From: Chitinophagales bacterium
Lineage (GTDB): Bacteria; Bacteroidota; Bacteroidia; Chitinophagales; LD1
Assembly: GCA_025057415.1 (NCBI GenBank)
Contig: JANWXI010000002.1
Location: 3,497-67,496, forward strand
Length of the DNA stretch: 64,000 nt
Reading direction: 5' to 3'
The position numbers were made by a program, and so were the translations under genes. Positions 28,933 to 59,806 of this stretch are shown here, one piece after another (position 1 is the first letter of the stretch; each line of letters opens with the position of its first letter). Below the pieces are notes generated by a model, which did not search any database, was not told the origin of the DNA, and saw nothing but the letters and a program-made list of their open reading frames with translations.

Positions 28933-29020
28933 TAGAGTATATTTTGCAAACGAATATAGACAAAGCTATTTTATATCACTCGTAAGTATTTTTAATTTTA
29001 TGCCGTAATAAGAGAGCAAG

Positions 29021-30820: not shown

Positions 30821-31986
30821 TTTATCGTTATTATTTTTTTTTCTTTCAGATAATTTACTACGTTGTTTGCCACAAATTTGCCTTTTATTGAGTCACCGGT
30901 TTCGTCTAAATGGCAATCGTCAATCCAATGTTTAGAAGGTATATCAGTATAGTTGTAATTGATGATGCCTACATTATACTTCATAGCTAATTTTTTTAGT
31001 GCATTGTTTAAGCCATCCAAGTTCTTAATATAATATGGTCGCTTGATACATTCTTCAGATAATTTGTTTACGGCAAAAGTCATCAGCATTATGTGTGATG
31101 AATCATAAAGCGCTTCTCTTATCAACGTAGAAATATTAGTTATTGCAGGAGATTTCATATAATCATTTGAAATTTCTTTTCGTACTATGTCAGGATACCA
31201 GTTACAAAAATAATAGTTGGTATTACTCATATTAGGCTGATCATGGTTTAATTTCTTCAATAAATCGTAACGTATTACCAAATAACTTATGAAATATGAC
31301 CTAAAAAAAATACGAGGGATAGGATATCTATAAACTAAATATGTCTCCGTTAGTCGGAAATTAACTTCATCAGGTGTATAGGAGAAAGAGTTGTTAAAAT
31401 CTATTTCAGCATCGTTACCGACAGAATGTAAGATAATTAAATTGGGTTTATAATATCTGAATTTGTGAAGATAAGCATTTAATTCATCACAAGATCTGCC
31501 GCCTTCTAAACCGGCATTAATCCCTTCAAAACCATTAAAATCTTTCATTTGAATCATGCCAGAATCTAAAAGTTGATTCAGAAATTTTATTGTTTGGGCA
31601 GGATATGTTTTATTAGGATTTAACACGCCACTTGAATATGTAGTAGATCCTCCTAAAAATAATATTCGATACTTATTGCCATGTAACATATTTACTTTCT
31701 CCCCTCTATATCCGTCTGAATTGTGTTGTAGAAAGTTACTTATCTGATAATTTGGAGTGGGCATAAAATTTAAATTAACAGCACCTACATATCTGGGTAA
31801 TACATTTTTAGATCCCTTCAATACCTCTCTTAGACGAAGAATTCTATCGGGGAATATATCCCTAAGATTGTCTGATTTATTTAAGTTGTGCAGTGCGAGG
31901 TAACCGATGCATTCCACAATAAATGACGTAACAATTAATATGACAGCAACGAATATACTATAGTATAATTTTTGTTTCATAAACAT
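30817..31986 (-). CDS. Membrane-anchored SGNH/GDSL-like hydrolase or acyltransferase
   Basis: N-terminal TM helix. Block I ILFLGGSTTYS, block III HSVGNDA, block V DDCHLDETG. Confidence 0.6.
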   Translation of the reverse strand: MFMKQKLYYSIFVAVILIVTSFIVECIGYLALHNLNKSDNLRDIFPDRILRLREVLKGSKNVLPRYVGAVNLNFMPTPNYQISNFLQHNSDGYRGEKVNMLHGNKYRILFLGGSTTYSSGVLNPNKTYPAQTIKFLNQLLDSGMIQMKDFNGFEGINAGLEGGRSCDELNAYLHKFRYYKPNLIILHSVGNDAEIDFNNSFSYTPDEVNFRLTETYLVYRYPIPRIFFRSYFISYLVIRYDLLKKLNHDQPNMSNTNYYFCNWYPDIVRKEISNDYMKSPAITNISTLIREALYDSSHIMLMTFAVNKLSEECIKRPYYIKNLDGLNNALKKLAMKYNVGIINYNYTDIPSKHWIDDCHLDETGDSIKGKFVANNVVNYLKEKKIITIK

Positions 31987-32785
31987 GGATTAATATATAT
32001 ATCCATGAAATTAAGAAATATATTCTCCAAATATACCATTTGATTAAAATATTTTGATTAGAAAAGCCAATACTTATTGGTATTAAAATCATAAATGCCA
32101 TTAATAAACTACGGCTACTTAGCCATACTGAATAACCTGTACATAAACCTAATGTATTTTTCATGTATAATGTAAATTTTCTCAGTTTGACTGCTGATGT
32201 ATTCACGTTGGTTATTCGATCAATTTCAATGTCATGCTCTATCTGATGTATGTGTGCTATGGAAGTCATGAGTCCTGATATTACACAAAGAGAAAGGTTT
32301 ACTCTAGGAGCTAAAACAGTTAACAATCCTCCCCAAATACCTACGATAATAATGTCTAATACCGGTAATGATTTAAAAAATGATGAGTAGGCGAAATTTA
32401 CTATATATAAAAGAAATAGTCCCCACGATTGCTTGTATTTCCAAAATAACAACCCATATGTTATTGATAAAATTGTTAAGAAGATAATTACTATCAGAAA
32501 AATCTGTTGATTATTGTTTATTTCTTCCACAAACGGTTGAAATTTTTTTGGGTTAAGGCGGTCGTTATAACGATCGGCATAATCGTTATAACCGTACAAG
32601 GCACATAACGTCAGAATGCTGTGCAAACCGGTGGCGATTGCCCACATAACATCATGGGTAGAGAAGTATGCGTGTAACACATTGAAAATCCAAATACCTC
32701 CTTCGCCCAGCTTCCAGCGCAGCCACAGCGGATAAAAAGCAAAACGCAGGAGCTGGGATAAATTGATGTTTGTACCGGTACGCAA
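31958..32785 (-). CDS. UbiA-family prenyltransferase / polyprenyl-phosphate transferase
   Basis: Polytopic 275-aa protein. First Asp-rich motif NDYADRYND (NDxxDxxxD) and second motif DIEID (DxxxD). Confidence 0.6.
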   Translation of the reverse strand: MRTGTNINLSQLLRFAFYPLWLRWKLGEGGIWIFNVLHAYFSTHDVMWAIATGLHSILTLCALYGYNDYADRYNDRLNPKKFQPFVEEINNNQQIFLIVIIFLTILSITYGLLFWKYKQSWGLFLLYIVNFAYSSFFKSLPVLDIIIVGIWGGLLTVLAPRVNLSLCVISGLMTSIAHIHQIEHDIEIDRITNVNTSAVKLRKFTLYMKNTLGLCTGYSVWLSSRSLLMAFMILIPISIGFSNQNILIKWYIWRIYFLISWIYILIHVYETKIIL

Positions 32786-34270: not shown

Positions 34271-35386
34271 TCATTTCTGCTTGCATTTCATGCTGTCGGA
34301 AATCTTTATGCCTGGGCGATTCGTTATCAAATTAAATATATGGTAGGCAACAACTTGCTGAAAAGGGGGATGTAAGTGACAATCGTCCGTAAATACGGGT
34401 TCTGTTTCCTGGTCGAATATATTTTTCATATCCACTAAAAAATCAGGATGCCTCAAACACTCCTGAGCCAGAAGAGGATAATAGGATTTGTACTGGCTTA
34501 TCATGTCAATTACGTAACCATCCTGGTTAATCTGTCTGTAGCTACTTACGCCCTGCACCGGCTGTAAAATTCCGATGAATCTGTAACCGTAGTGTTCGGC
34601 AAGCGCCTGCATTGTATTCATGTTTGCAGCCCAAAATCGAAAAACTTGCTCAGCATAATTACTATTGTAGTTTTTATTGTAGTAATTATCCCGTATTTCT
34701 TTGTAATAGTCATTTATTTTAGCGTGTTCCCGAGCATCTTTAAGATAAAATAAATGTTGCAGAGCAATCCACAGGTTTGGAACATAGCGCGGAGGTACGG
34801 GCTTATTGCAATTAATGTAAAAATCTTGTTCAAATATTGATATGAAACGGGGTTCTATTTCGTTTGCACCTGAGTAGGATAGATGTATATCCGGGATAAA
34901 GTTTCTTAAATCAGTACTCAATAATTTCAGCAGTTCTTGACCTGAGTTGTAACCCCCCACGGCTCCAATAATTATTTTTGCACAAATCCCTGCTGAGTCA
35001 AATAGCTTTGTAAGCAGAGTGGGCCAGTTTTGGGGAATGACAGCGGGATCCGTTGTACTTCCTCCTGATAGGTATATTACGAGTGTGTCAGCACAATTAC
35101 AATTCCCATGAAAGACGATATTACCAAATTCTGTTTTAAAACCTTTCTTGCATAGGATAGAGTCGCTCATCCTCCATCCGAGGAGAGGATCAATAATATC
35201 AAACTCTATGGCTTGAAGCGACTCAAAGCCGCCTGCAGGATAAGTGTTAAACTCTTTGTTATATAATATCGGCTTGCGCTCGTTTTCAGGCAAAGAGAAA
35301 TATGCGATTAATTCAAAAATTGTGATAAAAACAATACAACATATAACTAGTATTATTATTCCGTAAAATTTATTAATGTAAGCCAT
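34271..35386 (-). CDS. Membrane-anchored SGNH-like protein (divergent)
   Basis: N-terminal TM helix. YLSGGSTTDP (block I), SGANE (degenerate block III), DDCHLHPP (block V). Confidence 0.5.
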   Translation of the reverse strand: MAYINKFYGIIILVICCIVFITIFELIAYFSLPENERKPILYNKEFNTYPAGGFESLQAIEFDIIDPLLGWRMSDSILCKKGFKTEFGNIVFHGNCNCADTLVIYLSGGSTTDPAVIPQNWPTLLTKLFDSAGICAKIIIGAVGGYNSGQELLKLLSTDLRNFIPDIHLSYSGANEIEPRFISIFEQDFYINCNKPVPPRYVPNLWIALQHLFYLKDAREHAKINDYYKEIRDNYYNKNYNSNYAEQVFRFWAANMNTMQALAEHYGYRFIGILQPVQGVSSYRQINQDGYVIDMISQYKSYYPLLAQECLRHPDFLVDMKNIFDQETEPVFTDDCHLHPPFQQVVAYHIFNLITNRPGIKISDSMKCKQK

Positions 35387-36500
35387 TTGCTACTGGTTTA
35401 TGTAAAATTTGATGCAAGTACGGTTCAATTAAATCTGCCTTGACTTTCTCCCCAATTTCATTCACGTGTATCCCGTCATTAGGAATGAATAAGCTATCAG
35501 GAAAGGAAGATTTAGGGAGTATGCAAACCGGAACAGATCTCTCATTGCCCACCCGGATAGTGTATTCATTATTTATCAAAATGCCTTCATACAACAGATT
35601 TTTGAATGTTGCCGGCATTTGTATTGTATCCACTACTTCTGTCACAAGAAGTATTTTACACCCGTGGCTTTGTAAGATTTTTACCAGTTCAGTTAAGTTG
35701 TTGTAATAACCGTTGGCAGTGGGCTTAAATTTTTCTTCATTGCCACCCGGGTACCACACGTGATCATCGTGATATGAGAAAAATGGATTTTCCGTAAAAC
35801 TGTTATTAAGATACTCTTTGTAGCGGGTCTTAGTTAGCATAAAAGTAAGGATATTGCTGTATGAAAAAATCCGACTCGTATTGTTAACGGGCAAAGGGTT
35901 TTTAAAAACTACTTTGGCAGTGTGGTAGTCCGGCTGGTAAATGTATCCGGGTAATGATACTGTAGTGAAAGCATCGTTAATACCGGCATGAATTACTACA
36001 ACATCGGGGTGGAGATATTTGTACTTAAGCAGATAGTGTACAAGTAATTCTGCACTGGTTGCAGCTCCTAGTCCGGCATTAATACACTCAATGTTTCTGT
36101 TGTGTTTGTTAGGATTGCGAACTGTGTCGTTAAAACGTCTCTCCAATAAGAACGGAAACGTGTGTTCCGTTTTTTCAACTTCGCCAAATGTCGTACTACC
36201 CCCCAGGAACAAAACACGAGTTACGTTCGGTGGTTTGGGAATTATTATATCTCTGGGGTGACGCAGCCCCCATGTGTTAATTTGATGATGACCTGAATTA
36301 TCGGTATAAGCCGGGTTATTGATGTAATTGAGGAAGGGCTGAGAGATGTAGAGCGGTTGAGGGTTGGAAGAGCGTAGGTATTGTTGTACATACCTGTAAG
36401 GTTTATCTTCCGTAAACATTACAATACCAAATGTTAAATCAGCCAGCAAAAGCATCAAAATCAAAAAGCATAACAGAAAAAATATTTTGATATACCTCAT
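35373..36500 (-). CDS. Membrane-anchored SGNH/GDSL-like hydrolase or acyltransferase
   Basis: N-terminal TM helix. FLGGSTTFGE, HAGINDA, NDGIHVNEIGEK. Close paralog of 39983..41101. Confidence 0.65.
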   Translation of the reverse strand: MRYIKIFFLLCFLILMLLLADLTFGIVMFTEDKPYRYVQQYLRSSNPQPLYISQPFLNYINNPAYTDNSGHHQINTWGLRHPRDIIIPKPPNVTRVLFLGGSTTFGEVEKTEHTFPFLLERRFNDTVRNPNKHNRNIECINAGLGAATSAELLVHYLLKYKYLHPDVVVIHAGINDAFTTVSLPGYIYQPDYHTAKVVFKNPLPVNNTSRIFSYSNILTFMLTKTRYKEYLNNSFTENPFFSYHDDHVWYPGGNEEKFKPTANGYYNNLTELVKILQSHGCKILLVTEVVDTIQMPATFKNLLYEGILINNEYTIRVGNERSVPVCILPKSSFPDSLFIPNDGIHVNEIGEKVKADLIEPYLHQILHKPVANGLH

Positions 36501-38598: not shown

Positions 38599-39993
38599 TT
38601 ACATCGTCACTTTGCGAGAAACCATTTTGAATACATAAGGTATCGTATCTTTTATAGAGGCGTCTGTATATATGCTCAGTGGGAAATTGAATAACTGAGC
38701 AGGCCTAAAATAAAACTTACGGTAAATGTATTTTCTGTGTTTAGTGGCTTTTTGAGTAAGGAGAGGGTCGGTGAATTCATTTTTATAGGGCATTAAGCTA
38801 AAGTGTAATAAATGCTTGTAACGGTTATGCAGGGGGGTGCCGGGGTAAATTTTCAGAGTATCTACAATCGCAAAATGGCAAAGCTCCTTTGCCATTTTCA
38901 ATGTGTAATGAATGTCCTCTACTGTTTCTTCCGGAATACCCGTTAGAAAAAAACCGAGTATTTCAAATCCCATCTTTCGGGCTTTTTTGACGTGTGGGAT
39001 ACATTTTTCTATTTCATATCCTTTCTCCAATATATCGAGTATTCGCTGGCTTCCGCTTTCAAAACCGATGTTGAGCCGAATGCAGCCGGCTTTGCGCATC
39101 CACAGGAGCATTTCTTCGTCATACAAGGTGTCGGCACGGCTCAGGCAGGTCCATGGAAGGTTTACTTTGTGTTCAATCATTAAACGACACAGCTTAATGA
39201 CCCGCGAGGGTACAGCAGTAAAAGTATCGTCAATAAAGCGCAGGGAGCGAACGCCTAAGTGTTTTTTCATAAACAGGATGTGCTCCAACGTATTTTCCGG
39301 GGTGAGTACGGTGAGTTTGGTGCCGAAAGAGTGTACGCAATAATTACAAAAGTAAGGGCAGCCCCTGGCGCTCTGGATAACCCCTACCGGATTGGGCATG
39401 AAGGGTTCTTTATAGTGTTTTGGGATAATTAAATCATAAGCAGGCATGGGCAGCAGGTTAGGGTTCGGTACGCGCCGGTCGGGTTCGTTTGCCAGAATAT
39501 CACCGGTACTTTTTCTCACTACCGTACCGGTTATGTGTTCCGGTAAATTGCGGGGCGAAAAATATTTTAGAACATTTTCAAATACGTGGTCCGGTTCACC
39601 CAGCATTACCATGTCTGCACCTGTAAGCGCTAATGTTTCATGAGGAAATTCGGTAGGGTAATAACCGATTAGGATATATGGGACATCAGGCATAGATTGT
39701 TTGAGCATTTTCACGGCACTTACATCCTTATCAAAAAGCTCAAAACTCATGATGCTTACCACCAAATCGGGGCGTATGGTTTCGCTGAGGCGGATGACCT
39801 GCTGTATGCCGATGCATTCGGCAACAGCATCGGTAAATACCACCCGGTGGCCAGCTGCCCTGGCAACCGCAGCTAACGCGAGCAGGTCGTGGGGCGGGAA
39901 TAAATACCGCTCGGCAAAGCTGCTGCACATGTAGCGCCTCACTACCGGTATTGCAGCGGGAAGATTAAGAAACCATATCGTGCTACTGTTCAT
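38599..39993 (-). CDS. B12-binding-domain radical SAM enzyme
   Basis: The N-terminal region has AARAAGHRVVFTDAV...DLVVSIMS...MLGEPDHVF. Motif ARGCPYFCNYC. Confidence 0.85.
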   Translation of the reverse strand: MNSSTIWFLNLPAAIPVVRRYMCSSFAERYLFPPHDLLALAAVARAAGHRVVFTDAVAECIGIQQVIRLSETIRPDLVVSIMSFELFDKDVSAVKMLKQSMPDVPYILIGYYPTEFPHETLALTGADMVMLGEPDHVFENVLKYFSPRNLPEHITGTVVRKSTGDILANEPDRRVPNPNLLPMPAYDLIIPKHYKEPFMPNPVGVIQSARGCPYFCNYCVHSFGTKLTVLTPENTLEHILFMKKHLGVRSLRFIDDTFTAVPSRVIKLCRLMIEHKVNLPWTCLSRADTLYDEEMLLWMRKAGCIRLNIGFESGSQRILDILEKGYEIEKCIPHVKKARKMGFEILGFFLTGIPEETVEDIHYTLKMAKELCHFAIVDTLKIYPGTPLHNRYKHLLHFSLMPYKNEFTDPLLTQKATKHRKYIYRKFYFRPAQLFNFPLSIYTDASIKDTIPYVFKMVSRKVTM

Positions 39994-41101
39994 CTGAGCA
40001 AATTATTGCTTTAATAAAATCTGCTATATAATGTGCTTTCAGTTTTTCGCCCTGTGCATTTACGTGTATGCCGTCTTCTTCTAAAAACAGGTTCGGTGTA
40101 AAGATGCTATCGGGCAGCAGGCGGCAGCGGATATAATGATTAACGGCCAATTGTTGCATCATGGCACGGTGCAGCATTAATCCGCGCAACAACGGTAAAC
40201 GTAAGTGAGCAGGCATTTTGGTAGTGTCGCACACTTCGGGTACAAACAATACAACCGAGCCGCGCGAGGCAGCTACATGCGTTAAAGTTTTCATGTTTTG
40301 AAAGAAAGCATTGTAGGTGGTATCGCGGTGAAGTTCCGGATTATCCGGGAACCACAGGTATTGGCCTGTGTAATGGAAAAAGGCGTTGTCCTCCAGGGAT
40401 GTTTTGAGATAATCGCGAAGCCGTAGGTTGACCAGCAGGTAAACAGCCGTGCGGCTCCATAGCATTTTTCTTTCCCAAGGTTTTAATTCCAACACATCGC
40501 GAAATACTCTCCTGCTATTGTGGTAATCGGGTTGGTACGGCGCCTGGTTGATACGGGCATACATAAATGCATCATTGAAGCCGGTGTGCAGCACAACGAT
40601 ATCGGGCTGCAGGTATTGGTATTTGTATTGAAAATGCGCCAGTAGTTCAGCGCTCGTAAGCCCGTGTACACCCCCGTTTAAACACTCTATGCTGCGAAAC
40701 TTTTTCATTACGCAGGGCTCTTGTGGCAGGGCTTTTTCAATTAAGGCAGGGAACATTTCGAATGTATCGTCCACATCGCCAAAGGTGGTGGAGCCGCCCA
40801 AAAAGAGTATCCTGCAGGTTCCGCTGTCTTTTTGCAGAGGTACTTCGCGGCTGTATCGCAAGCCCATGGAATTGATTTCGGTATTACCGCGGCTATCGCG
40901 GTAACCGGGCCGGTTGATGTAGTTTAAATAGGGTTGCGAAATGTATCCTACCTGGTTGCCGGGTTGTTGAAGCGCTTCGTAAATCTGTTGATATACGGTG
41001 CCATGACGGAATAGGGTGAACTTGAATGTAATTTCTATCAGCAAAAAGAGTACTGCAAATGCCAAAACAGACACGATAAGTCCGAATAAAATCTTTTTCA
41101 T
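39983..41101 (-). CDS. Membrane-anchored SGNH/GDSL-like hydrolase or acyltransferase
   Basis: FLGGSTTFGD, HTGFNDA, EDGIHVNAQGEK. The start is moved to the internal Met (MKKILFGLIVSVLAFAVLF) because all four paralogs begin directly with the TM helix. The 62-codon upstream extension to 41287 is doubtful. Confidence 0.65.
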   Translation of the reverse strand: MKKILFGLIVSVLAFAVLFLLIEITFKFTLFRHGTVYQQIYEALQQPGNQVGYISQPYLNYINRPGYRDSRGNTEINSMGLRYSREVPLQKDSGTCRILFLGGSTTFGDVDDTFEMFPALIEKALPQEPCVMKKFRSIECLNGGVHGLTSAELLAHFQYKYQYLQPDIVVLHTGFNDAFMYARINQAPYQPDYHNSRRVFRDVLELKPWERKMLWSRTAVYLLVNLRLRDYLKTSLEDNAFFHYTGQYLWFPDNPELHRDTTYNAFFQNMKTLTHVAASRGSVVLFVPEVCDTTKMPAHLRLPLLRGLMLHRAMMQQLAVNHYIRCRLLPDSIFTPNLFLEEDGIHVNAQGEKLKAHYIADFIKAIICSDEQ

Positions 41102-41314
41102 GCCGACAGAATAACAAACATACAGGTTCTGTATGAATTTTTCGTACCCAAAAAATGTGTTGCGGGTTTGTATTGTGAAAGAAAAGGCGGATGTGGCTGC
41201 AGCGTGGGGAGCCATTACCGCATACATAACGCTACAGGCGAATACAAGGGTGTGAAGTAGCAAATGCTGGTGGGATTTATGTTGCATAGGTGAAGTAAAG
41301 TAGTAGCGTATAAG

Positions 41315-41440
41315 CCGGGTGAGGGATGCGAGCGGAAAGCCCGCAGCCGCGCCCGCGCTTATAGCGCGGGCGCGGCGAGGACTTGAAGCGGGTCAGCCCG
41401 ACCCCGCCGCCTTGCAGCGCTTGGCGGCGGGGGCACCCCC
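41315..41440 (+). repeat. GC-rich double-hairpin intergenic repeat, copy 2
   Basis: Same element as 11870-12021, shorter. Central perfect 13-bp stem GCCGCGCCCGCGC-TTATA-GCGCGGGCGCGGC. Terminal stem CCCCGCCGCC / GGCGGCGGGG. Lies in the divergent intergenic region between the two halves of the cluster. Confidence 0.85.
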
Positions 41441-41557
41441 AAAAAAATATTAACCAGATTTACTTTGTGTTGCGTACAAAGGTTCAAGGGATAATTAGGA
41501 TGGGGAGTTTCTGATAGCGATAATTGATGAATAAGGATTATAGCGTATCTTTACCGC

Positions 41558-43099
41558 ATGAACATTTGCCTGGTGCGGCCGCCCAAGTTGATGAAGTTGC
41601 TGGGCGGCTCTATGAATCCGGTGCCTCCGCTGGGGTTGGCTTTTGTGGCAGCATCGCTGCGCGAGGCGGGGCATCGGGTAACGGTGATTGATGCCATAGG
41701 GGAGGCGCCGTTGCAGGTAGTTCCGTATCGTTTGCAGGGCACATACACTAACGGATTGAGTTACGATGAGATATACCGGCGCATACCTTCAAATACCGAT
41801 GCCGTGGGGTTTAGTATGATGTTTACCGAGAACTGGCTGAGCGACCGCGACCTGATACATTACCTTGGCAGCCGTATGCCGGGGGTAACTTTTTTTGCAG
41901 GAGGCGAGCACATCAGCGCGTATCCGGAGATGTGGTTGAAACAGGCAGAGCACTTGCATGTTTGTGTAGTGGGTGAAGGGGAAGAAACGGCTGTGGAACT
42001 TGCCCGGGCGCTTGAGAGTGGCACTCCTTTAGAGGATGTACACGGGATAGTTTTTAAAAACCATCGAGGTACAATCATCACAAACCTCCGCCGGGGGCGT
42101 ATTCGGAAAATAGAGGATATACCGTTGCCGGCGTGGGAGCTTTTTCCGATAGAAACGTACAACGATTTGAAGTTGCAATGGGGTGTTTACCGGGGCAAAT
42201 CGTTGCCGATACTCGCTACGCGCGGCTGCCCCTATACCTGTACTTTTTGCAGCAGTCCGCAGATGTGGACTACGAAATACTCCATGCGCAGCCCGATGCA
42301 CGTGGCGGATGAAATGGAGATGTATTACCGGAAATACGGTATTACGAATTTTGATTTTTACGACCTTACGGCAATCATCCGCAAGGAGTGGATTATTGAT
42401 TTGTCGAAAGAGATTATCCGCCGCGGTTTGCAAATAACCTGGCAGATACCGGGCGGTACCCGGTCAGAAGCCATCAACCGCGAAGTAGCGCATTGGTTAT
42501 ACCGCTCCGGATGCAGAAACATTACCTACGCCCCCGAAAGCGGCAGCCCGGAAACCCTACATTACATCCGTAAGAAAATCAGTATTTCGAAAATGCTCAC
42601 CTCTATCGGGCACAGTAACCGCGAGGGGATGAACATTAAGTTGAATATTATGATAGGTTTTCCGGAAGAGCGACACAAACACTTATGGCAAACGATATGG
42701 TTTCTGATGCGCGCGGCAGCATACGGGGCGCATGATGCGGTGCCTTCTATTTTTTCGCCATATCCCGGCAGCGCACTTTTTGAGCAGTTGGTACGCGAGG
42801 GGCAGATACGCCCCGATACAGACGAGTACTACGAGGGTATATTGGATACCAATGATTATACGGGTACAAAATTTTACAACAAGCATTTAAGTAAAGGATG
42901 GTTAAGGTTTTATTTTTATATGTATTTGGTTGCTTTTTTTGGCACGCAATATCTTGTTCGTCCCTGGAGGTTAATCCGCACATTACGCAATTTAGTGCTC
43001 AGAAAACAGGAATCGAGAGGTGAAGCTGCCTTACTGGAAATGCTGGGGAGGAGGAAATTTGTGTTAAGAACCGAAATGACAGAGGTTGCACATGCATGA
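41558..43099 (+). CDS. B12-binding-domain radical SAM enzyme, family A paralog 2 (513 aa)
   Basis: MNICLVRPPKLMK...PPLGLAFVAASL...IDAIGEAP...VVGEGEET. ATRGCPYTCTFCSSPQMW. QIPGGTRSEAI. Confidence 0.85.
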   Translation: MNICLVRPPKLMKLLGGSMNPVPPLGLAFVAASLREAGHRVTVIDAIGEAPLQVVPYRLQGTYTNGLSYDEIYRRIPSNTDAVGFSMMFTENWLSDRDLIHYLGSRMPGVTFFAGGEHISAYPEMWLKQAEHLHVCVVGEGEETAVELARALESGTPLEDVHGIVFKNHRGTIITNLRRGRIRKIEDIPLPAWELFPIETYNDLKLQWGVYRGKSLPILATRGCPYTCTFCSSPQMWTTKYSMRSPMHVADEMEMYYRKYGITNFDFYDLTAIIRKEWIIDLSKEIIRRGLQITWQIPGGTRSEAINREVAHWLYRSGCRNITYAPESGSPETLHYIRKKISISKMLTSIGHSNREGMNIKLNIMIGFPEERHKHLWQTIWFLMRAAAYGAHDAVPSIFSPYPGSALFEQLVREGQIRPDTDEYYEGILDTNDYTGTKFYNKHLSKGWLRFYFYMYLVAFFGTQYLVRPWRLIRTLRNLVLRKQESRGEAALLEMLGRRKFVLRTEMTEVAHA

Positions 43100-44303
43100 T
43101 ATTGCCATACGGCTTACCGATGTATCAAAAACATACCGGGGTAATACCGGGCTTATCCGTGCAGTGCATAACGTTACAGCCACCATCAAACGCGGAGAGG
43201 CACTCGGGATTGTAGGCCGCAACGGGTGTGGCAAGAGTACATTGATGAAGATGATTGGCGGCATCATTAAGCCCAGCTCCGGCAAAATAGAAGTACAAGG
43301 GAATATTCTGCCCATTGTGGAGGTGGGGGCGGCTTTTCATCCGGAGTTGACCGGAGAGGAAAATATTTTATTAAACGGGTATTTGCTCGGCTGGAGCAAA
43401 AGCGAAATAAAACGCATATTGCCACAGGTGCTGGAGTTTGGTGAGTTAGGGAAGTTTATTCATGAGCCGGTAAAAAATTACTCGCAGGGGATGTTTTTGC
43501 GCCTGGCATTTTCACTGATGGCTCATTTGCCTTACGATATTGTTTTATTAGATGAAGTACTTTCGGTAGGAGACAGTAAGTTTCGCCATAAGTGTTATGA
43601 AAAAATACAAGAATTTAAACAGGACGGTAAGACCCTGCTGATCGTATCGCACATTTACGATGAAATCGCATCGTTGTGCGATTTATGTATGGTTTTACAC
43701 AACGGAACATGTGTTGCCCTGGGCACCCCTGCCGATACATTTAATATTTATCAGGAGTCGCTCATAGATGATGGCATGCAATCAATTATTGGTTTGGAAG
43801 ATCGTTTTGAATATATTCATGTAGGATATATGCGCATACGTGATGTGCATATTTATAATCTTAACGATAAAAATGCTCCGATAGTTTTTTCAGAACCGAT
43901 TGTCATTGAAGTAGAATGGGAAAAGCTGACACCTGAAGGGGGTATATATTTTGACATTCAATGTATGGATATCTTCAACAGACCTGTGTGGCATACCTCA
44001 AACTATTTTGGAAAAAAAATTGATCTTGATCCCGCACCAAACACTATGCAAACCGGCATTTTTACTGTCAGGTGTGTAATTCCTGCCTGTTTCATGAATT
44101 TTGGTAGTTATTACATAATAATTCAAGCATCACAATATATAGATAAGGAGAATAACTATACTATATTAAAGACAACACACCCCATACAATTATTTATTTC
44201 AAACAACTATCAGGAGGAACAAGAAAATAAGTGGACACATAGTCAATCTCATATTCGTACAAATATTTTTAATTGGGAAGAAACTGAAATATTATTAACT
44301 TAG
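43086..44303 (+). CDS. Wzt/TagH-like polysaccharide-export ABC transporter ATP-binding protein with C-terminal extension
   Basis: Walker A GRNGCGKST, signature-like YSQGMFLRLAF and Walker B IVLLDEVLSVGD, followed by a ~160-aa extra C-terminal domain. Overlaps the upstream rSAM gene by 14 nt. Confidence 0.8.
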   Translation: MHMHDIAIRLTDVSKTYRGNTGLIRAVHNVTATIKRGEALGIVGRNGCGKSTLMKMIGGIIKPSSGKIEVQGNILPIVEVGAAFHPELTGEENILLNGYLLGWSKSEIKRILPQVLEFGELGKFIHEPVKNYSQGMFLRLAFSLMAHLPYDIVLLDEVLSVGDSKFRHKCYEKIQEFKQDGKTLLIVSHIYDEIASLCDLCMVLHNGTCVALGTPADTFNIYQESLIDDGMQSIIGLEDRFEYIHVGYMRIRDVHIYNLNDKNAPIVFSEPIVIEVEWEKLTPEGGIYFDIQCMDIFNRPVWHTSNYFGKKIDLDPAPNTMQTGIFTVRCVIPACFMNFGSYYIIIQASQYIDKENNYTILKTTHPIQLFISNNYQEEQENKWTHSQSHIRTNIFNWEETEILLT

Positions 44304-44326
44304 CATTACTTTATTAGGTATTTGAG

Positions 44327-45862
44327 ATGAAAGTTGTGCTTATCAGACCGCCCAAATTCATGATAGAAGGTAGTCAGCCAATACCTATTATTCCCCCGTT
44401 GGGCATAGCGTTAATTGCCGGATCTCTTAAAGCGGCAGGGCATCAAGTAAATGTAATTGATGCTATTGCCGAAGCCCCTAACCAGTTTAATAAAAACGAG
44501 CCAATACCCGTTTACAGCAATCGCGTAAAAAAAGGTTATCGGCTGATCAGCATGGGCTTAAGCTTTGAGGAAATTGCATCCCGCATACCTCTCGATGTTG
44601 ATGTGATTGGCTTAAGTTGCATGTTTAGTATTAACTGGCCGTTAGATCGCGCTTTGATAAAATACCTCGCTGGAAAATTTCCGCTTGCCAAAATGATTGC
44701 CGGCGGGGAGAGTATCACCGGCATGGCGGAAACCTGTTTGCAACAAGCGCCCCAACTCATTGCGTGTGTTATGGGAGAAGGAGAAGAAACGTCCATTGAA
44801 TTATTAAGTGCTTTTGAAAAAAATCTGCCACTTAGCAATGTTCCGGGTATCATGTGTCGTTTGCCGGATGGCACTATCTATAAAACTAAACCCCGGCAAC
44901 GCATCCGTAAGTTAGATGAGGTGCCTTTTCCCGATTGGAGCACTATGCCGATCTACAACTATCAGCGCCATGCAGTGTATCCTGGCGAAACACCCCGCAT
45001 TACACTGGGTATTATGGCCACGCGGGGGTGCCCATATGAATGTACTTTCTGTACCAGCCCCGATATGTGGGGAACCCGCTATTTTATGCGCTCACCCGAC
45101 AATGTGATAGCCGAAATAGAATATATGAAAAATATTTATGGGGCTACTAATTTTGAATTTTTTGACCTCACAGCCATTATTCAAAAGCGTTGGATTATAG
45201 AATTTGCCCAAAAATTGGTGGAAAAGAAACTAAACATCACCTGGAAAATACCAGCCGGTACGCGCAGTGAAGCTATTGATGAAGAAGTGGCTTATTGGCT
45301 TAAAAAATCAGGATGTTTTTTTATTACATACGCTCCGGAAAGCGGCTCGCAACGTTTGCTAAATATCATCAAGAAAAAAGTTTCATTGGATAACATTTTA
45401 CAGTCTATAAAATACTCCAAAAAGCAGGGTATGATAGTCTATATTAATATGATTATGGGGCTACCTGACGAAACACACCTTGATGTATGGAAAACATTTT
45501 TATTTTTATTTAAGTGCAAACTAAACGGAGTTGATGAAATGCCCTTAGCTGTTTTCAGACCATACCCAGGCAGTTCGCTTTTTGATAGGCTTTTAAAAGA
45601 GGGTAAAATTGAATCATCCAGCGATGATTACGTAATTGACTCTCTTTTTATTATTGAAACGATTACTGAACATCAGTATTATAATGATAATATTTCGGCT
45701 TTTTGGTATAAAATATATATGTGGCTTGCCTATTTCTTTTTCTATGGTTTGGATTACATAAAAAATCCGACAAGCATATTGCGAACCATTCGAAATATAA
45801 GCGAAAAGAATTATCAAAATGAATTAGAACGTAAACTAGCCTACAGATATCAATCGCCTTAG
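44327..45862 (+). CDS. B12-binding-domain radical SAM enzyme, family A paralog 3 (511 aa)
   Basis: MKVVLIRPPKFM...PPLGIALIAGSL...IDAIAEAP...VMGEGEET. ATRGCPYECTFCTSPDMWG. KIPAGTRSEAI. Confidence 0.85.
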   Translation: MKVVLIRPPKFMIEGSQPIPIIPPLGIALIAGSLKAAGHQVNVIDAIAEAPNQFNKNEPIPVYSNRVKKGYRLISMGLSFEEIASRIPLDVDVIGLSCMFSINWPLDRALIKYLAGKFPLAKMIAGGESITGMAETCLQQAPQLIACVMGEGEETSIELLSAFEKNLPLSNVPGIMCRLPDGTIYKTKPRQRIRKLDEVPFPDWSTMPIYNYQRHAVYPGETPRITLGIMATRGCPYECTFCTSPDMWGTRYFMRSPDNVIAEIEYMKNIYGATNFEFFDLTAIIQKRWIIEFAQKLVEKKLNITWKIPAGTRSEAIDEEVAYWLKKSGCFFITYAPESGSQRLLNIIKKKVSLDNILQSIKYSKKQGMIVYINMIMGLPDETHLDVWKTFLFLFKCKLNGVDEMPLAVFRPYPGSSLFDRLLKEGKIESSSDDYVIDSLFIIETITEHQYYNDNISAFWYKIYMWLAYFFFYGLDYIKNPTSILRTIRNISEKNYQNELERKLAYRYQSP

Positions 45863-46736: not shown

Positions 46737-48440
46737 ATGATTATACCCTTTACATTTCGTCTATTTACCAAGTGGTTCATTTTCGGCATCATCATCAATA
46801 TTGTTATATGTAATCTTTTACCACCGGTATATGGCGACTACGATTATCTCGGGGCCGCCATTATGAGCGGACAATTGTCTGATGGTTTAGTATTAAAAAC
46901 GTATCACCTGGGATTGTTTCCTGCATCCTGGATGATCGGTATGCTGCATTATTTGGTCCCAACTTGGCCATGGACAGGTATTATTATTCTACTACAATGG
47001 ACTGTGATTTTGGCAAGTATTGCTTGCATGTTGCCGATAGACGAAACCATTGATAAGTACAATACAACTTTGCGAATTCTGCTGTATGTCATTTCATGGT
47101 TAATACTGGCATTAGGATGTTTAATAATTCCATTTCAAGAGTTTTCTGTGACTGGTGTAGGAGTGGTGAGCAGTGCGGTAGGCGCATGGGGCATATACCT
47201 CCATATCACCCGTACTAGTGGGGTAAAAAATATCTGTACGATATTGTTCTTTACACTGCTATGCTTTGGCGGTTATATGTGGCGATGGGAAGCAGGGCTG
47301 GGCGGTACAATACTTTTTGCGATATATGTCTTTTGGTTCGATGATCTTAAAAATGTACTGAAAGGGCTTTTAATACCGGGAATTATTGCTGTAATATTAT
47401 TTATCGGCATACTGGTCCAGTTGCGCGATCATTATTTTTTTAAGGTAATAGAACCGATGATATTTTATGTTACTGATGCAAGAACACCACCGCCCATTGA
47501 TAGTACCTCTTACAGAAAAATGCTTGCGCAAAGTATCATACGGGCCTCGTTTATATCGGATACTACCATCGTTAACTATAATCATGTTTATGAATTATAT
47601 GTGCGCAAGAAGATGCAAGAAATTAATCAATTAAAAGAGCCATTTAAAACAATTCGACAATCGCTAATAAATATGTCCGGTACCGTAAAAAAATGTAGCG
47701 GCATTAGCTTCGCTTACCTGTATGTTTTTGCTGCAGGTATGATGATTTTAGCGATGTCTGGGAGAAAAAGCGAAGTAATCCGGGTTGTACTGTTCAATCT
47801 GACTGTATGGCTAGTGATTATTCTTACTGCGTATGTGATGAAAATGGAGCCATGGCACTATACACCTATTTTGCAAACTACATTATTGTTTAATCTGGTT
47901 AACGTAATTTTCCCAATAAGCAACAGCGGTAATATTGCGATAATACTAGTACCGGCATTCTTATCTGTAATTAACTTCGGTAATTTCTATCATATGTGGA
48001 AAAAAGAACAACAGGAAATATTAACCAAAAAAGTCGCCAGGAGCAAATTTATTAGACCATCTGTTCCGTATGTATTTATAGATGTAGATACGAAAGATAT
48101 TCTGGATGATAGAGTGTTTACTCCTATGAAGTTACCTGCCAACATATATTTTTATGATTTAGGTCAACTGACCCATTTGACTCCTTTTAAAAATAAACTT
48201 TCGAAAGCTTGTAATTGCAATTTTTATCACGCAGATGAATTTTTCCGGTTTGTGGACAGTAAATCGGACTCAATCCTATATGTTTCTACTGCCCAAAGAG
48301 TACAACTTATCAATTTACTTACGACTGAGTTTTATCAGATGCGCTTGCTTTTCACTGCCGTTGACTCTGCTAATGTTACAGTTGGCACGCAGGAAATACC
48401 TGTAATTTATGCATTCAAAGTCAAGGTGATTTCTTCATAA
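46737..48440 (+). CDS. Polytopic membrane protein with soluble C-terminal domain (unknown family; paralog of 27277..28932)
   Basis: 567 aa with the same helix/loop/C-terminal-domain layout as the 551-aa protein. Blocks in the central loop (SFISDTTIVNY vs SFFFTDTAQY) and at the C-terminus align by eye. Confidence 0.5.
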   Translation: MIIPFTFRLFTKWFIFGIIINIVICNLLPPVYGDYDYLGAAIMSGQLSDGLVLKTYHLGLFPASWMIGMLHYLVPTWPWTGIIILLQWTVILASIACMLPIDETIDKYNTTLRILLYVISWLILALGCLIIPFQEFSVTGVGVVSSAVGAWGIYLHITRTSGVKNICTILFFTLLCFGGYMWRWEAGLGGTILFAIYVFWFDDLKNVLKGLLIPGIIAVILFIGILVQLRDHYFFKVIEPMIFYVTDARTPPPIDSTSYRKMLAQSIIRASFISDTTIVNYNHVYELYVRKKMQEINQLKEPFKTIRQSLINMSGTVKKCSGISFAYLYVFAAGMMILAMSGRKSEVIRVVLFNLTVWLVIILTAYVMKMEPWHYTPILQTTLLFNLVNVIFPISNSGNIAIILVPAFLSVINFGNFYHMWKKEQQEILTKKVARSKFIRPSVPYVFIDVDTKDILDDRVFTPMKLPANIYFYDLGQLTHLTPFKNKLSKACNCNFYHADEFFRFVDSKSDSILYVSTAQRVQLINLLTTEFYQMRLLFTAVDSANVTVGTQEIPVIYAFKVKVISS

Positions 48441-49316: not shown

Positions 49317-50864
49317 GTGAATATTGTTCTCATACGCCCCCCAAAGTTAATGATTCGCGGCACACTTACTATGAAGCCGGTCGCGCCGCTGGGGCTTGCT
49401 TACATAGCTGCTGCAGCCGAGTCGGCAGGGCACAATGTTCGCGTAATTGATGCTATTGCCAATAATATTTGTGAATTCCATCCTACTGAATTAGGCAATG
49501 ATATTATCATTCAGGGAATGCGCCCCGAAGTTGTTGCAGAGTTAGTTCCTTGCGGCTCCAAAGTTATCGGTTTGAGTTGCATGTTCTCTAACAACTGGCT
49601 ATTGGATAGGCGGTTGATCAAAGTTTTGCGTAGTCGGTTTCCTGAAGCAGTGTTAATAGCAGGTGGAGAAAGCATTTCGGGGATGCCGGAATACGCACTG
49701 AAAGACAGTGAGTTAGACATTTGCGTGGTGGGTGAAGGAGAAGAAACATTTAAGGAAGTTTTATCGGCTATAGAAAATCAAATACCACTGGTTACAGTCA
49801 AAGGGATTGTATTCAAAAAAGATGGGAAAATCGTATTAAATCCGCGCAGGGAGCGTATTCGTCAATTAAATGATATACCCTACCCAGCGTGGCATTTTTT
49901 TCCTGTCAATGCTTATTTTGATAATCAAATTACATTGACACCTACCGAACGAAAAAGTTTGCCTACTTTAGCCACCCGGGGGTGTCCCTATACATGCACT
50001 TTCTGCAGCAGTCCTAACATGTGGACTACCAAATATAGCTTACGTAGTCCCGATAACATTCTTCAGGAAATGATTTATATGTATGAAAAATACGGTGTAA
50101 CTAATTTTGAATTGTTTGACCTCACGGCCATTATAAACCGACAATGGATACTGGAATTTTGCCGCTTACTGCAAAATTACCCGGTACATTTTACATGGCA
50201 AATGCCCGCAGGCACACGAAGTGAGGCCCTGTCTGAGGAAGTGATAAGGGAAATGGCTAAAGCAGGATGCACCAATATTACCTTCGCTCCTGAAAGCGGA
50301 AGTAAAAAAGTGTTACAACTTATTCAGAAAAAAGCCGACCCGGACAAGATGCTACCTGCAATGAAGTTGGCTTCACAACTTGGAATGTACGTTTACGTTA
50401 ACTCGATTATAGGTCTTCCAGGAGAAACCCACCGCGATATTTGGAAAAGTATGCTTTATCTTGCAAAAACGGCATTTGCCGGAGCACAAGATACGGGTAT
50501 GGCTGTTTTTATGCCATACCCGGGATCTGAGTTATTCAAACAATTTGAACAATATGGTCAATTATCGCTCTCCGACTCGTTTTTTTATGATATACTTTAC
50601 ACTGATTCTATCACAAAAAGTCAATTTTACAATAATAACATCCCTTCATTTATTTATCGTATTTATAACATTCTTTTATTAACTGTTTTTTATATAGTTT
50701 CTTACAGTAGTCATCCGTCAAGAATATACAAAAGTTTACGGAATGTAATCAAAAGACGGTATGTTACTCGTGGTGAAAGAGCTATCGGCTATCTAATGGA
50801 ACAATACTTTTCATTAAAAAAATCACCTGTCCATTCATTACACCAACCAGTATCTCACGTTTGA
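49317..50864 (+). CDS. B12-binding-domain radical SAM enzyme, family A paralog 4 (515 aa)
   Basis: GTG start. NIVLIRPPKLM...APLGLAYIAAAA...IDAIANN...VVGEGEET. ATRGCPYTCTFCSSPNMW. QMPAGTRSEAL. Confidence 0.85.
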   Translation: MNIVLIRPPKLMIRGTLTMKPVAPLGLAYIAAAAESAGHNVRVIDAIANNICEFHPTELGNDIIIQGMRPEVVAELVPCGSKVIGLSCMFSNNWLLDRRLIKVLRSRFPEAVLIAGGESISGMPEYALKDSELDICVVGEGEETFKEVLSAIENQIPLVTVKGIVFKKDGKIVLNPRRERIRQLNDIPYPAWHFFPVNAYFDNQITLTPTERKSLPTLATRGCPYTCTFCSSPNMWTTKYSLRSPDNILQEMIYMYEKYGVTNFELFDLTAIINRQWILEFCRLLQNYPVHFTWQMPAGTRSEALSEEVIREMAKAGCTNITFAPESGSKKVLQLIQKKADPDKMLPAMKLASQLGMYVYVNSIIGLPGETHRDIWKSMLYLAKTAFAGAQDTGMAVFMPYPGSELFKQFEQYGQLSLSDSFFYDILYTDSITKSQFYNNNIPSFIYRIYNILLLTVFYIVSYSSHPSRIYKSLRNVIKRRYVTRGERAIGYLMEQYFSLKKSPVHSLHQPVSHV

Positions 50865-51247
50865 ATATGCTTGAAAAATACCTTTGGATAATATACATAT
50901 CAATATCTTTATTAATCGGTGAATTTCACCCGTTTTCACTGTACAAGATGTATAACGCTTTTCCTGACAATGCCACAATCATTGTAGTAAAAAATGCCGA
51001 ATCGCATTTTATTCCCATAAGGGAACATTTACGTTGTCGTTCGGCTGATCTTACGCACAAATACTATGCGTATCGAAAACATTACGGTCAATCGGACTCA
51101 GCAGCTTTAGAATATTTATGCAAACAGCTACACACATATCGTATCTCTGCAATGCAAAGTGATTTACGATTGTGTCTCTTGAATCTTTATAAAATTCCAA
51201 ATCAGATTACTACAGAAACATTTTGCCGGCATGAAGCATGTCGCTGA
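50861..51247 (+). CDS. Hypothetical small protein with one N-terminal hydrophobic helix
   Basis: 128-aa ORF that overlaps the upstream rSAM gene by 4 nt and the downstream membrane-protein gene by 17 nt. No family recognised. Confidence 0.45.
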   Translation: MNMLEKYLWIIYISISLLIGEFHPFSLYKMYNAFPDNATIIVVKNAESHFIPIREHLRCRSADLTHKYYAYRKHYGQSDSAALEYLCKQLHTYRISAMQSDLRLCLLNLYKIPNQITTETFCRHEACR

Positions 51248-52094
51248 TTTATCAGATAGTGAAATAACGCTTTTTTGGTTCACTATTCGTTTATCATGGA
51301 GTGTAATACTTTGTGCTACATTAACCATATTTCTATTTCAGAGTAATCAGAATTTTTACCCCGAAGGTATTTTCCGATTTGTACCGATGAGTTTTTCGCT
51401 GCCGGTTTGGATGAAGGTATTAGCATCTATAATTATAAACGGTTGCGGGGTTGTGTATGTGTTGAACCGCAACATGAAATTGGTTGTGACTGTCTTAGCC
51501 GTATTGTCCTTTTTTGTTGTTTCATATCATGAGGCCAACGGCATTTATGCCCGCGCCACCATTCTGACAGCAATATGTATCGGACAAGCCATAGCTTTTT
51601 ATCAGAATGAGCGTAACTACCCGAATTCTGTAGCTTATAAAGCTATTAATTACTCAGTACAAATGATTGCTGCCGGCTACGTTTTGGCGGGCATTTCCAA
51701 GATTTATGAGTCAGGTTTAGGTTGGTTTTTAGATGTTGAGGGCTTTTGCCTGCAAATAATGAAAAATTTTTACTTTTTATATGCTGACACAGGGAATTCG
51801 GAATACCTGAATTACGCACAATCTATATATAACATTTTCTCCAATTATCCGTGGGTACCTGCTGCGATGTTGTTTGCTGCACTGCTGCTGGAGTTATTTT
51901 GTTTTGTGGTGGTTTATATGCCAAAACTTACCGTATGGTGGGGCATCGGTTTGCTGCTGATGCACCTGGGGATAGCTGTTCTGATGGGGATCGGTATTAG
52001 TGTGATCGCATTTCCGATGGTAATATTTTTTATTAACCCCGTGTATTATATCATTAGAGGGATTAAGAAACTTTCGGAGTGTAATGTCGTATAA
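51231..52094 (+). CDS. Polytopic membrane protein (unknown; possibly HTTM/DoxX-like)
   Basis: 287 aa with about 7 hydrophobic helices. The family assignment is only an impression. Confidence 0.45.
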   Translation: MKHVADLSDSEITLFWFTIRLSWSVILCATLTIFLFQSNQNFYPEGIFRFVPMSFSLPVWMKVLASIIINGCGVVYVLNRNMKLVVTVLAVLSFFVVSYHEANGIYARATILTAICIGQAIAFYQNERNYPNSVAYKAINYSVQMIAAGYVLAGISKIYESGLGWFLDVEGFCLQIMKNFYFLYADTGNSEYLNYAQSIYNIFSNYPWVPAAMLFAALLLELFCFVVVYMPKLTVWWGIGLLLMHLGIAVLMGIGISVIAFPMVIFFINPVYYIIRGIKKLSECNVV

Positions 52095-53019
52095 GTTCAA
52101 GCATTTCTTTTTCTGAGTAATCAAAGTATTTGTATGGCACTATCTCTTTTCTCCATAAAGTTTCATCCGGTTTGGAAATAAAATCATACGTGTAATAAAA
52201 CTCTTCCGTCACATAATATTTTTCGATTTGGTCAAGAGGCAGTTCCGGGTTACGGAAATAATACACCAACTGGTAGTTCTTACGTAGTACCGTCATGGTA
52301 ATGGCGTGACGGATTTCTGTACCGAGGTTGGGAGCGCTGGCATGGATACAAGCCGGGTCAAAAACAATCACATCACCCTTTTTGACGGTAACGGGGTGAG
52401 CATGCTTATAAAGTATAGGTATATAATTTTTGAACTGCCAGGGAACACCTAAGCTGCGTTGGGTATTACCCCACAGATGGCTGCCACTTACAAAAGATAC
52501 AACACCGTTTTCCATAGTTACATCGCAAAAGGGTATCCATACAAACAGGCAATAGTCGCTCTCTTCATCTATTACAGTAGAGTCCTGATGTATCAATAAG
52601 TCGCTGTTGGGATGAGGGGGTTTTACCTGAAAGGCGCCCCCGGTGTGTGTATCGGTTTTTTGCATATCAAACAAACGGGGCAGAATTACCGGGGCTAATT
52701 CATTGATTACCTGCTGTACTTTTTTCCGTATTTCAGGATTAAAAAGCCGTCCGCTGTTGAGCAAATGCTTATCTAATTCAAATCCGTCCAACTTTGAAAT
52801 TTCATCAAATGTTTGCATAAATCTGTCTATTTCATCCTGGCGGATTACCTGCTCAATTTTCACCCAACCGTACTGCAAGTATTTTGCGTGATGGTCGTCA
52901 TTGATAAAAAAACTATCCATGCGGATACGGTAATATTTATTCTCCTGCAAGGTTGGCAGACGGAGAGATGGTTTAAATATTTTTGTAATATAATTGATCA
53001 TTTTTGTAATTAACTCCAA
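52063..53019 (-). CDS. PhyH-family Fe(II)/2OG dioxygenase
   Basis: HxD in DLLIHQDSTVIDE and distal His in DPACIHASAPN. Confidence 0.75.
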   Translation of the reverse strand: MELITKMINYITKIFKPSLRLPTLQENKYYRIRMDSFFINDDHHAKYLQYGWVKIEQVIRQDEIDRFMQTFDEISKLDGFELDKHLLNSGRLFNPEIRKKVQQVINELAPVILPRLFDMQKTDTHTGGAFQVKPPHPNSDLLIHQDSTVIDEESDYCLFVWIPFCDVTMENGVVSFVSGSHLWGNTQRSLGVPWQFKNYIPILYKHAHPVTVKKGDVIVFDPACIHASAPNLGTEIRHAITMTVLRKNYQLVYYFRNPELPLDQIEKYYVTEEFYYTYDFISKPDETLWRKEIVPYKYFDYSEKEMLELIRHYTPKVS

Positions 53020-59803: not shown

Positions 59804-59806
59804 CGC

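Follow-up and report, generated by a model that had tools for sequence, protein, structure and literature searches.

The 64,000-nt stretch analysed here (the window; contig C119:3497-67496, from GenBank contig JANWXI010000002.1) belongs to a metagenome-assembled genome (MAG) of a Chitinophagales bacterium, which comprises 3.22 Mb in 196 contigs with a GC content of 47.0%. It carries four genes, p23956, p41558, p44327 and p49317, for paralogous cobalamin (B12)-binding radical S-adenosylmethionine (SAM) proteins, whose origin and base composition are the subject of this work. An earlier note on this DNA described four open reading frames (ORFs) of 511-515 aa with common conserved blocks; all four were confirmed, and the motifs PLG, IDAI, GEGEET, ATRGCPY(E/T)CTFC(S/T)SPxMW, P(A/G)GTRSEA and (Y/F)APESGS are invariant or almost so across the paralogs. 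Each protein contains an N-terminal B12-binding domain (PF02310, 55-63 bits against a cut-off of 32) and a Radical_SAM domain (PF04055, 49-83 bits), and the cysteines C224, C228 and C231 of the CxxxCxxC [4Fe-4S] motif are invariant across 15 sequences. Based on these domains and this motif, the four paralogs can be assigned to the cobalamin-dependent (class B) radical-SAM superfamily.

The only relatives with a solved structure are the remote class B enzymes AprD4, TokK, CysS, TsrM and OxsB (E-values from 1e-22 to 1e-11). These enzymes and, by annotation, BchE, HpnJ and the Sden_1168 family have the same arrangement of a B12-binding domain followed by the CxxxCxxC radical-SAM core. In contrast, the conserved C-terminal 130 residues of the paralogs, and surroundings made up of glycosyltransferases of the GT2 and GT-C types and a Wzt-like protein, are unlike those of any characterised class B member. 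More specific assignments were tried and rejected on score, namely the Sden_1168 P-methyltransferase (NF038361, 147-193 bits against a cut-off of 575), BchE (TIGR02026, 139-152 against 481), HpnJ (TIGR03471, 113-133 for the four paralogs and at most 156 for the neighbouring 464-aa B12-radical-SAM protein, against 578) and ApyD (NF050148, 124-152 against 750). The four paralogs thus appear to represent one uncharacterised class B radical-SAM family, of which the examined Bacteroidota loci usually carry several copies. When 1.84 billion cluster representatives were searched with a profile, 13,911 proteins were returned at E <= 1e-30, a total that also includes other B12-radical-SAM families. Separately, the giant proteins P0041, P0085, P0132, P0138 and P0144 (1820-2331 aa) were found to contain two to four stretches of the B12-radical-SAM family per chain and are thus fused multi-radical-SAM enzymes.

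The four genes are located in a low-GC island (Table 1), together with three more distant B12-radical-SAM genes (at 18878, 22513 and 38599) and a plain radical-SAM gene (at 29825). Including these, the island encodes seven B12-radical-SAM, one plain radical-SAM, three AspH-like, one Cupin_8/JmjC, seven PhyH and one WelO5-like enzymes. Its other genes encode four to five membrane-anchored SGNH proteins, a UbiA-family protein, a flippase-like protein, three large polytopic proteins (the third, at 32807, possibly ArnT-like), a Wzt/TagH-like ATPase (152-187 bits against TagH/Wzt cut-offs of 320-538), a candidate permease with six transmembrane (TM) segments, a GFO/IDH protein and a GT2 protein.

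Table 1. Features of the window, with positions in the window and GC content at third codon positions (GC3) where computed
Feature	Position	Strand	Details
SpoIIM-family gene, left flank	17854-18867	-	Copy in G008 67% identical, directly beside that genome's island
Hypervariable low-GC island, predicted tailoring locus	18878-58979		Between SpoIIM flank and CN-hydrolase trio
p23956, B12-binding radical-SAM	23956-25497	-	513 aa; GC3 0.436; sister on SKYGB_h_bin9 contig L047 (90% aa identity), 100/100
Block collinear with SKYGB_h_bin9 L047	24199-31058	-	75.9% nt and 69-92% aa identity; p23956, AspH, flippase-like, 551-aa polytopic, AspH, 331-aa radical-SAM
Flippase-like LPG_synthase_TM protein	26249-27277		PF03706; recurs in 15 Bacteroidota loci
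551-aa polytopic protein	27277-28932	-	Same loose family as the 567-aa protein (family alignment)
UbiA-family transferase	31958-32785		PF01040, domain level
SGNH paralog	35373-36500	-	GC3 0.404
Host-like/GC-richer block	38599-43099	mixed	464-aa B12-radical-SAM (-), 434-aa SGNH (-), 270-bp divergent intergenic region, p41558 (+)
SGNH paralog	39983-41287	-	GC3 0.520; in GC-normal block
p41558, B12-binding radical-SAM	41558-43099	+	513 aa; GC3 0.568; sister SKYGB_h_bin9 L026_1_1257 (75%), 100/100
Wzt/TagH-like ABC ATPase	43086-44303	+	C-terminal extra domain; 14-nt overlap with p41558
p44327, B12-binding radical-SAM	44327-45862	+	511 aa; GC3 0.391; sisters SKYGB_h_bin9 L026_2838 and genus-mate G021/L089 (71% each)
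567-aa polytopic membrane protein	46737-48440	+	GT-C-like (ArnT-like) predicted fold, AlphaFold2 (AF2) model; no Pfam match
p49317, B12-binding radical-SAM	49317-50864	+	515 aa; GTG start; GC3 0.362; nearest P0152 on L106 (66%) and P0001 (63%)
Candidate Wzm-type permease	51231-52094	+	287 aa; about 6 predicted TM segments; no Pfam match; 52% identical orthologue at same position in L106
GT2 glycosyltransferase, candidate polyprenyl-phosphate sugar synthase	58167-58979	+	PF00535, domain level
Right edge: CN-hydrolase, 398-aa protein, carbamoyltransferase	58976-62630	+	GC3 0.59-0.64
Partial reverse-transcriptase gene	63154-63999	+	33% GC; at window edge
Composition blocks	18.9-62.6 kb		18.9-21.3 host-like; 21.3-38.6 AT-rich; 38.6-43.1 host-like/GC-richer; 43.1-58.9 AT-rich; 59-62.6 GC-rich

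In the main tree (IQ-TREE, LG+C20 with posterior mean site frequencies (PMSF); 81 sequences, some of them from loci found by scanning GTDB), a clade with 100/100 support unites the Bacteroidota sequences and sets them apart from 16 sequences that come from 10 other phyla. Each window paralog has its own 100/100 sister in another organism; the sister group of p49317 consists of metagenomic proteins that are 63-66% identical to it. A second tree (FastTree, 143 rows), built from the best 50%-identity cluster representatives of the profile search and homologues from the genus, placed all four paralogs inside one 20-row clade with only five database representatives. The identities among the four proteins are 40-54%, and their monophyly was rejected by the approximately unbiased (AU) test with a log-likelihood difference (delta lnL) of 919 and p 2.4e-86. 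Identity, tree and AU test together rule out a recent in-situ duplication, as the earlier note had suggested. The different donors that it envisaged for the individual paralogs were not borne out, since the relatives of all four belong to the one Bacteroidota clade, which also rules out donors in distant phyla. The paralogs are therefore old and represent four separate orthologous groups in a Bacteroidota-specific radiation.

Two placements in the tree cross phylum labels. The gene at L039:9992-11575, from an 'uncultured bacterium' (locus GC 73%, gene GC3 0.94), is nested in the Bacteroidota p23956 group, and that at L094:10001-11527, from a bin labelled Myxococcota, adjoins the copy of G017. 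Either cross-phylum transfer or mis-binning may explain these placements.

The base composition was compared with that of the 1538 ORFs of at least 250 aa in the genome, whose GC3 has a mean of 0.521 and a standard deviation (SD) of 0.064. The discordance among the paralogs that the earlier note had seen by eye was present when GC3 was computed: the values are not uniform (Table 1), and p41558 lies at the 78th percentile of the genome, with p23956, p44327 and p49317 at the 8.6th, 3.2nd and 1.5th. The description of p41558 as GC-rich stood only in part; the gene is richer than its paralogs but ordinary for its host, and it is the AT-rich paralogs that are outliers. The contrast holds at 128 invariant degenerate residues (GC3 of 0.54, 0.48, 0.44 and 0.41). 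In a composition survey of 88 family members in 74 loci, GC3 was tightly correlated with local GC (r = 0.96, residual SD 0.055). Members sharing a genome differed in GC3 by 0-0.10 in the 17 other genomes that carry two or more of them, compared with 0.21 in the source genome. The GC3 discordance is thus genuine and unusual for this family.

This discordance runs by block and not by gene. The 4.5-kb segment 38599-43099 has GC3 values of 0.49-0.57, while the genes flanking it have 0.35 and 0.40. The contrast between the two SGNH paralogs, which the earlier note had also pointed out, was reproduced (Table 1); the two are 38% identical to each other and their difference is part of the block-wise pattern. 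The amino-acid make-up of p41558 is of the GC type, with a glycine, alanine, arginine and proline (GARP) fraction of 0.269 and an R/(R+K) ratio of 0.66, compared with 0.242 and 0.48 for the genome and about 0.23 and 0.46 for its orthologues. Downstream of p41558, the GC drop falls inside the Wzt-like gene, from about 0.50 in the ATPase half to 0.30-0.34 in the C-terminal half. The same two halves differ in conservation, with 50% identity to the orthologues of SKYGB_h_bin9 and contig L106 in the N-terminal half and 33-36% in the C-terminal half, and the latter fits what would be expected of a fast-evolving glycan-recognition domain.

The order SGNH / B12-radical-SAM / SGNH <> p41558 / Wzt / p44327 / PhyH / p49317 is found again, in pieces, in four other lineages. 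On contig L026 of SKYGB_h_bin9, the orthologues of p41558, Wzt and p44327 occur in the same order with 75, 41 and 71% identity, respectively. The JGI contig L106 carries p41558-Wzt-p44327-PhyH-p49317 (73, 42, 71, 43 and 66%), followed by a Wzm-like gene, WelO5, three PhyH genes, GFO/IDH and GT2, an arrangement that mirrors the window from 41.5 to 59 kb. The Logan contig L107 carries SGNH / 464-aa B12-radical-SAM / 434-aa SGNH <> p41558 / Wzt, with identities to the window of 73% for p41558, 46% for Wzt and 57% for the 434-aa SGNH protein. The window, SKYGB_h_bin9 and L106 are roughly equidistant from one another (p41558 73-77%, p44327 66-71%, Wzt 35-42%). Since the order is shared at about equal divergence, p41558, p44327 and p49317 were already neighbours before those lineages diverged, and at least these three genes, together with Wzt and the upstream SGNH and B12-radical-SAM genes, appear to form a long-standing array.

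These data bear on the proposal of the earlier note that the cluster consists of xenologs accreted from donors of different composition, each paralog having been captured separately with its neighbours and inserted beside the others. A GC3 spread twice the largest of the 17 other genomes, a nearest relative that differs for each paralog, and a closest congener that lacks the island or has another one are all in keeping with it. Nevertheless, SKYGB_h_bin9, L106 and L107 share the order of genes surrounding three of the paralogs at about equal divergence; the relatives all belong to one Bacteroidota clade; and insertion scars were not found when tRNA genes and flanking repeats were looked for. 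Additionally, the syntenic contigs are 69-76% identical to the window, and hence are not recent recipients of its array. The synteny largely refutes paralog-by-paralog capture, which we regard as improbable; the part of the proposal that invoked horizontal exchange stands, based on the incongruence of p23956 described below.

A conserved array could also have been misassembled, if sequences from related populations had been joined within conserved genes to give a chimeric contig. The MAG is in 196 contigs, and its composition changes lie in or close to conserved domains, for instance the ATPase half of the Wzt-like gene. However, the Logan contig L105 (run SRR15826902) is 100% identical to the window over 41317-43741, which spans the junction of p41558 and Wzt, and a 164,869-bp contig is on record with proteins identical to p41558 and p49317. 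A further protein, P0169, matched to p44327 by its length of 511 aa only, is likewise recorded on a contig of 164,869 bp. The reading frames are intact, the junction is a 14-nt gene overlap, and the same gene order is found in four other lineages. A chimera is therefore unlikely, and exceedingly so in our estimate.

The arrays of the other lineages are more uniform in composition than that of the window, with GC3 values of 0.29-0.33 in SKYGB_h_bin9, 0.32-0.43 in L107 and 0.43-0.54 in L106. The L107 genes matching the 38599-43099 block have GC3 values of 0.38-0.43, and among the arrays compared the p41558 block stands out only in the window. This comparison bears on an explanation without transfer, in which the composition would be gene-specific, set by expression, position at the divergent promoter, amino-acid constraint or local mutation bias, in a vertically inherited island. 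The Karlin B codon-usage distance is in its favour, as it places only p49317 near the tail of the genome (94th percentile) and the other three paralogs between the 35th and 74th percentiles. The contrast is also weaker at invariant residues (0.54 versus 0.41), some GC3 heterogeneity exists within the L106 array, and surface-glycan islands are AT-rich in relatives too. On the other side, the SKYGB_h_bin9 and L107 arrays are uniformly AT-rich and their p41558 orthologue is not GC-enriched, and GC3 in the family tracks host GC with the correlation given above. Two further observations, the incongruence of p23956 with housekeeping proteins and the almost complete difference in island content from the nearest congener, also disagree with vertical inheritance, and we consider this explanation unlikely.

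The first of these observations concerns the segment 23956-30820, which overlaps the block collinear with contig L047 of SKYGB_h_bin9 (Table 1). The relatedness of SKYGB_h_bin9, itself a fragmented MAG, was gauged by a handful of housekeeping proteins, including penicillin-binding protein 1 (PBP1) and 3-deoxy-D-arabino-heptulosonate 7-phosphate (DAHP) synthase. It is more distant from the source genome than the genus-mates are: PBP1 is 64% identical, versus 70-85%, and DAHP synthase 66%, versus 72-78%, with housekeeping identities of 55-78% overall. Nevertheless, p23956 is 90% identical to its L047 orthologue, and the two AspH proteins and the 331-aa radical-SAM protein of the block are 87%, 92% and 84% identical to theirs, whereas the p23956 orthologues of genus-mates are only 60-63% identical. 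Gene and organism are thus incongruent, and the horizontal exchange of the 23956-30820 block is real. For p41558 and p44327, with identities of 71-75% against the housekeeping range of 55-78%, and for p49317, which we group with them, incongruence is only suggestive.

The second observation concerns the distribution of the island in the genus. Close family members are present in only 8 of 25 congeners, with one to three copies each. In the nearest congener, G008 (PBP1 85% identical), the same flanks enclose a 33.5-kb island (G008:C49:57800-91300; loci L102 and L103) that contains at least four other B12-radical-SAM genes, one radical-SAM gene without a B12-domain match, DUF1800/DUF1501 genes and a lipase-maturation-factor-like gene. 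Only one gene, the PhyH gene at 52063-53019 (77%), is more than 40% identical between the two islands. The CN-hydrolase, 398-aa and carbamoyltransferase trio of the right edge is 66-84% identical in, and adjoins the islands of, G008, G017 and G021, and may form a conserved core of the locus instead of only bordering it.

Some indication of the function of the island comes from its gene content. In a context survey of the family covering the 74 loci, from several phyla, GT2 was the most widely conserved partner across phyla (36 of 74 loci); other recurrent partners were a PMT_2-type GT-C protein, a flippase-like protein, an NAD-dependent sugar epimerase/dehydratase and an ABC ATPase. A large polytopic protein is located at most three genes away from about half of the family members. 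For the 567-aa polytopic protein of the window, the AF2 model (pLDDT 83, pTM 0.85) gave ArnT (5ezm/5f15), STT3 and Pmt4 as the top PDB folds in a Foldseek search, with probabilities of 0.97-1.0, and AftB at rank 16 (0.60). An hhalign comparison of the 550-aa membrane family with PMT_2 clusters was uninformative, as even the two PMT_2 clusters, compared with one another, reached a score of only 2%. Based on this context, we tentatively suggest that the island tailors lipid-linked sugars for an envelope glycan.

The island might instead tailor a ribosomally synthesised and post-translationally modified peptide (RiPP) of the proteusin-like type, or a membrane lipid, with the paralogs acting as iterative C-methyltransferases. 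Weak NCBIfam likenesses to radical-SAM methyltransferases of RiPPs (ApyD, TIGR03975) and to radical-SAM enzymes of lipids or hopanoids (HpnJ, HpnR and a ladderane-type family), all far below cut-off, point in this direction, as does the presence of AspH, JmjC and PhyH enzymes, which are able to hydroxylate peptides or lipids (PMC2938197). The intergenic gaps of the island (62-366 bp) are, however, too small for a precursor gene; protease, leader-binding and lanthionine genes were not found in the island; and the partners conserved across phyla are GT2, GT-C/PMT_2, flippase-like proteins, sugar epimerases/dehydratases and Wzt-type ABC ATPases. A peptide or lipid substrate is therefore very unlikely.

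Taken together, we consider it probable that the composition of the window reflects segments exchanged among Chitinophagales that differ in GC, at a hypervariable locus for the tailoring of an envelope glycan, in which the paralogs are old and the array is long-standing. The island would evolve like a surface-antigen locus, with whole blocks being swapped for homologous alleles or for different modules from other Chitinophagales, and the GC3 patchwork would most likely record the differing recent histories of these blocks, not a separate capture of each paralog nor a recent duplication. The likeliest route of exchange would be homologous recombination through conserved genes. In the proposed pathway, the GT2 protein would supply a carrier-linked sugar; the B12-radical-SAM proteins, together with the neighbouring Fe(II)/2-oxoglutarate (2OG) oxygenases, would tailor the polyprenyl phosphate-borne sugar in the cytoplasm through C-methylation or some similar radical chemistry; the flippase-like protein would flip the tailored, carrier-linked sugar; the GT-C (ArnT-like) enzyme would move it onto the envelope glycan; and Wzt with the putative Wzm would export this glycan.

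Several points weigh against segmental exchange in a locus of this kind. The contrast between 90% and 64% identity rests on few housekeeping genes of a fragmented MAG. The L106 array is also heterogeneous in GC3 (0.43-0.54), so that part of the variation could be gene-specific, and the compositional discordance of the paralogs is moderate, since the Karlin distance puts only p49317 near the tail. A search of 5.8 billion proteins with p41558 and p49317 as queries returned no closer donor, with nothing above 73-75% and 66%, respectively, and the donor lineage was not found. With orthologues at most 75% identical (90% for p23956), saturation at synonymous sites prevents any reading of when and in which direction the exchange took place. 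Marks of mobile elements were not found when tRNA genes, flanking repeats and integrase or transposase genes (by Pfam matches) were looked for; only the reverse-transcriptase gene is located past the right edge. Regarding function, the sugar substrate of the radical-SAM proteins is a prediction from gene context, and the TM-scores of the 567-aa model against GT-C folds are low (0.33-0.40).

The island can be compared with known systems at three levels. O-antigen and capsule loci have low GC, are mosaic, and have their alleles replaced by recombination between conserved flanks. The island resembles such loci in its conserved flanks, in content that is nearly all replaced between close relatives, in a GC below that of the genome, in its patchy distribution in the genus, in the fast-evolving C-terminal half of Wzt and in the incongruence of gene tree and species. 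It is unlike them in that its variable genes are mainly those of B12-radical-SAM proteins and Fe/2OG oxygenases, and not of Leloir glycosyltransferases. Cobalamin-dependent radical-SAM enzymes that act on sugars, including lipid-anchored ones, are GenK and GenD1 of gentamicin, MoeK5 of the phosphoglycolipid moenomycin and HpnJ of glucosaminyl-hopanoid biosynthesis, and they provide a precedent for such activity. These pathways yield secondary metabolites or hopanoids, unlike a Wzt-exported envelope glycan, and the window paralogs fall below the HpnJ cut-off.

At the third level, GtrABC and ArnC/ArnEF/ArnT are three-component extracytoplasmic glycosylation systems. Such systems consist of a polyprenyl-phosphate-sugar synthase, a flippase and a GT-C enzyme, and have been described for pentofuranoses by Kelly et al. 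2024 (PMC11127046). The island has candidate counterparts in its GT2 (58167), UbiA (31958), LPG_synthase_TM (26249) and ArnT-like polytopic proteins (27277 and 46737); it differs in that the flippase candidate is neither of the MATE nor of the GtrA type, and in that B12-radical-SAM and 2OG enzymes lie interspersed among these components, a feature not described for three-component systems. In the literature on B12-radical-SAM enzymes in polysaccharide, GT-C or Bacteroidetes contexts, no description of such an island was found.

A more specific scenario, which we consider doubtful, is that of a serotype-like, module-swapping locus shared by Chitinophagales and some other phyla. In this case, arrays of B12-radical-SAM and 2OG enzymes would build multiply C-methylated or hydroxylated polyprenyl-phosphate sugars, ArnT-like GT-C enzymes would attach them to an envelope glycan that is exported, each paralog would serve a particular step or module, and the GC mosaic would be the trace of antigens switched recently through recombination of species that differ in GC.

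Old paralogs, mosaic composition and the exchange of blocks between conserved flanks are ordinary for surface-antigen loci. The interest of this island lies in its content: its class B radical-SAM family is uncharacterised and is consistently accompanied by genes of the GT2, GT-C and flippase-like types. If the tailoring of lipid-linked sugars were true, the family would represent unexplored glycan chemistry and antigenic diversity in environmental Bacteroidota, and the orthologous groups defined here provide a rational set of targets for biochemical work.

Two minor observations were made on other ORFs of the window. The ORF at 21321-22481 (- strand), within the minus-strand radical-SAM/oxygenase operon, resembles a multihaem c-type cytochrome, with an N-terminal anchor and weak Pfam matches (Cytochrome_C554, C7 and NrfB); it could encode a periplasmic redox partner or be unrelated. 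A 515-aa ORF at 10226-11773 (+ strand) has no Pfam match and overlaps the 3' part of a DAHP synthase/chorismate mutase gene on the opposite strand; it is probably not a gene.

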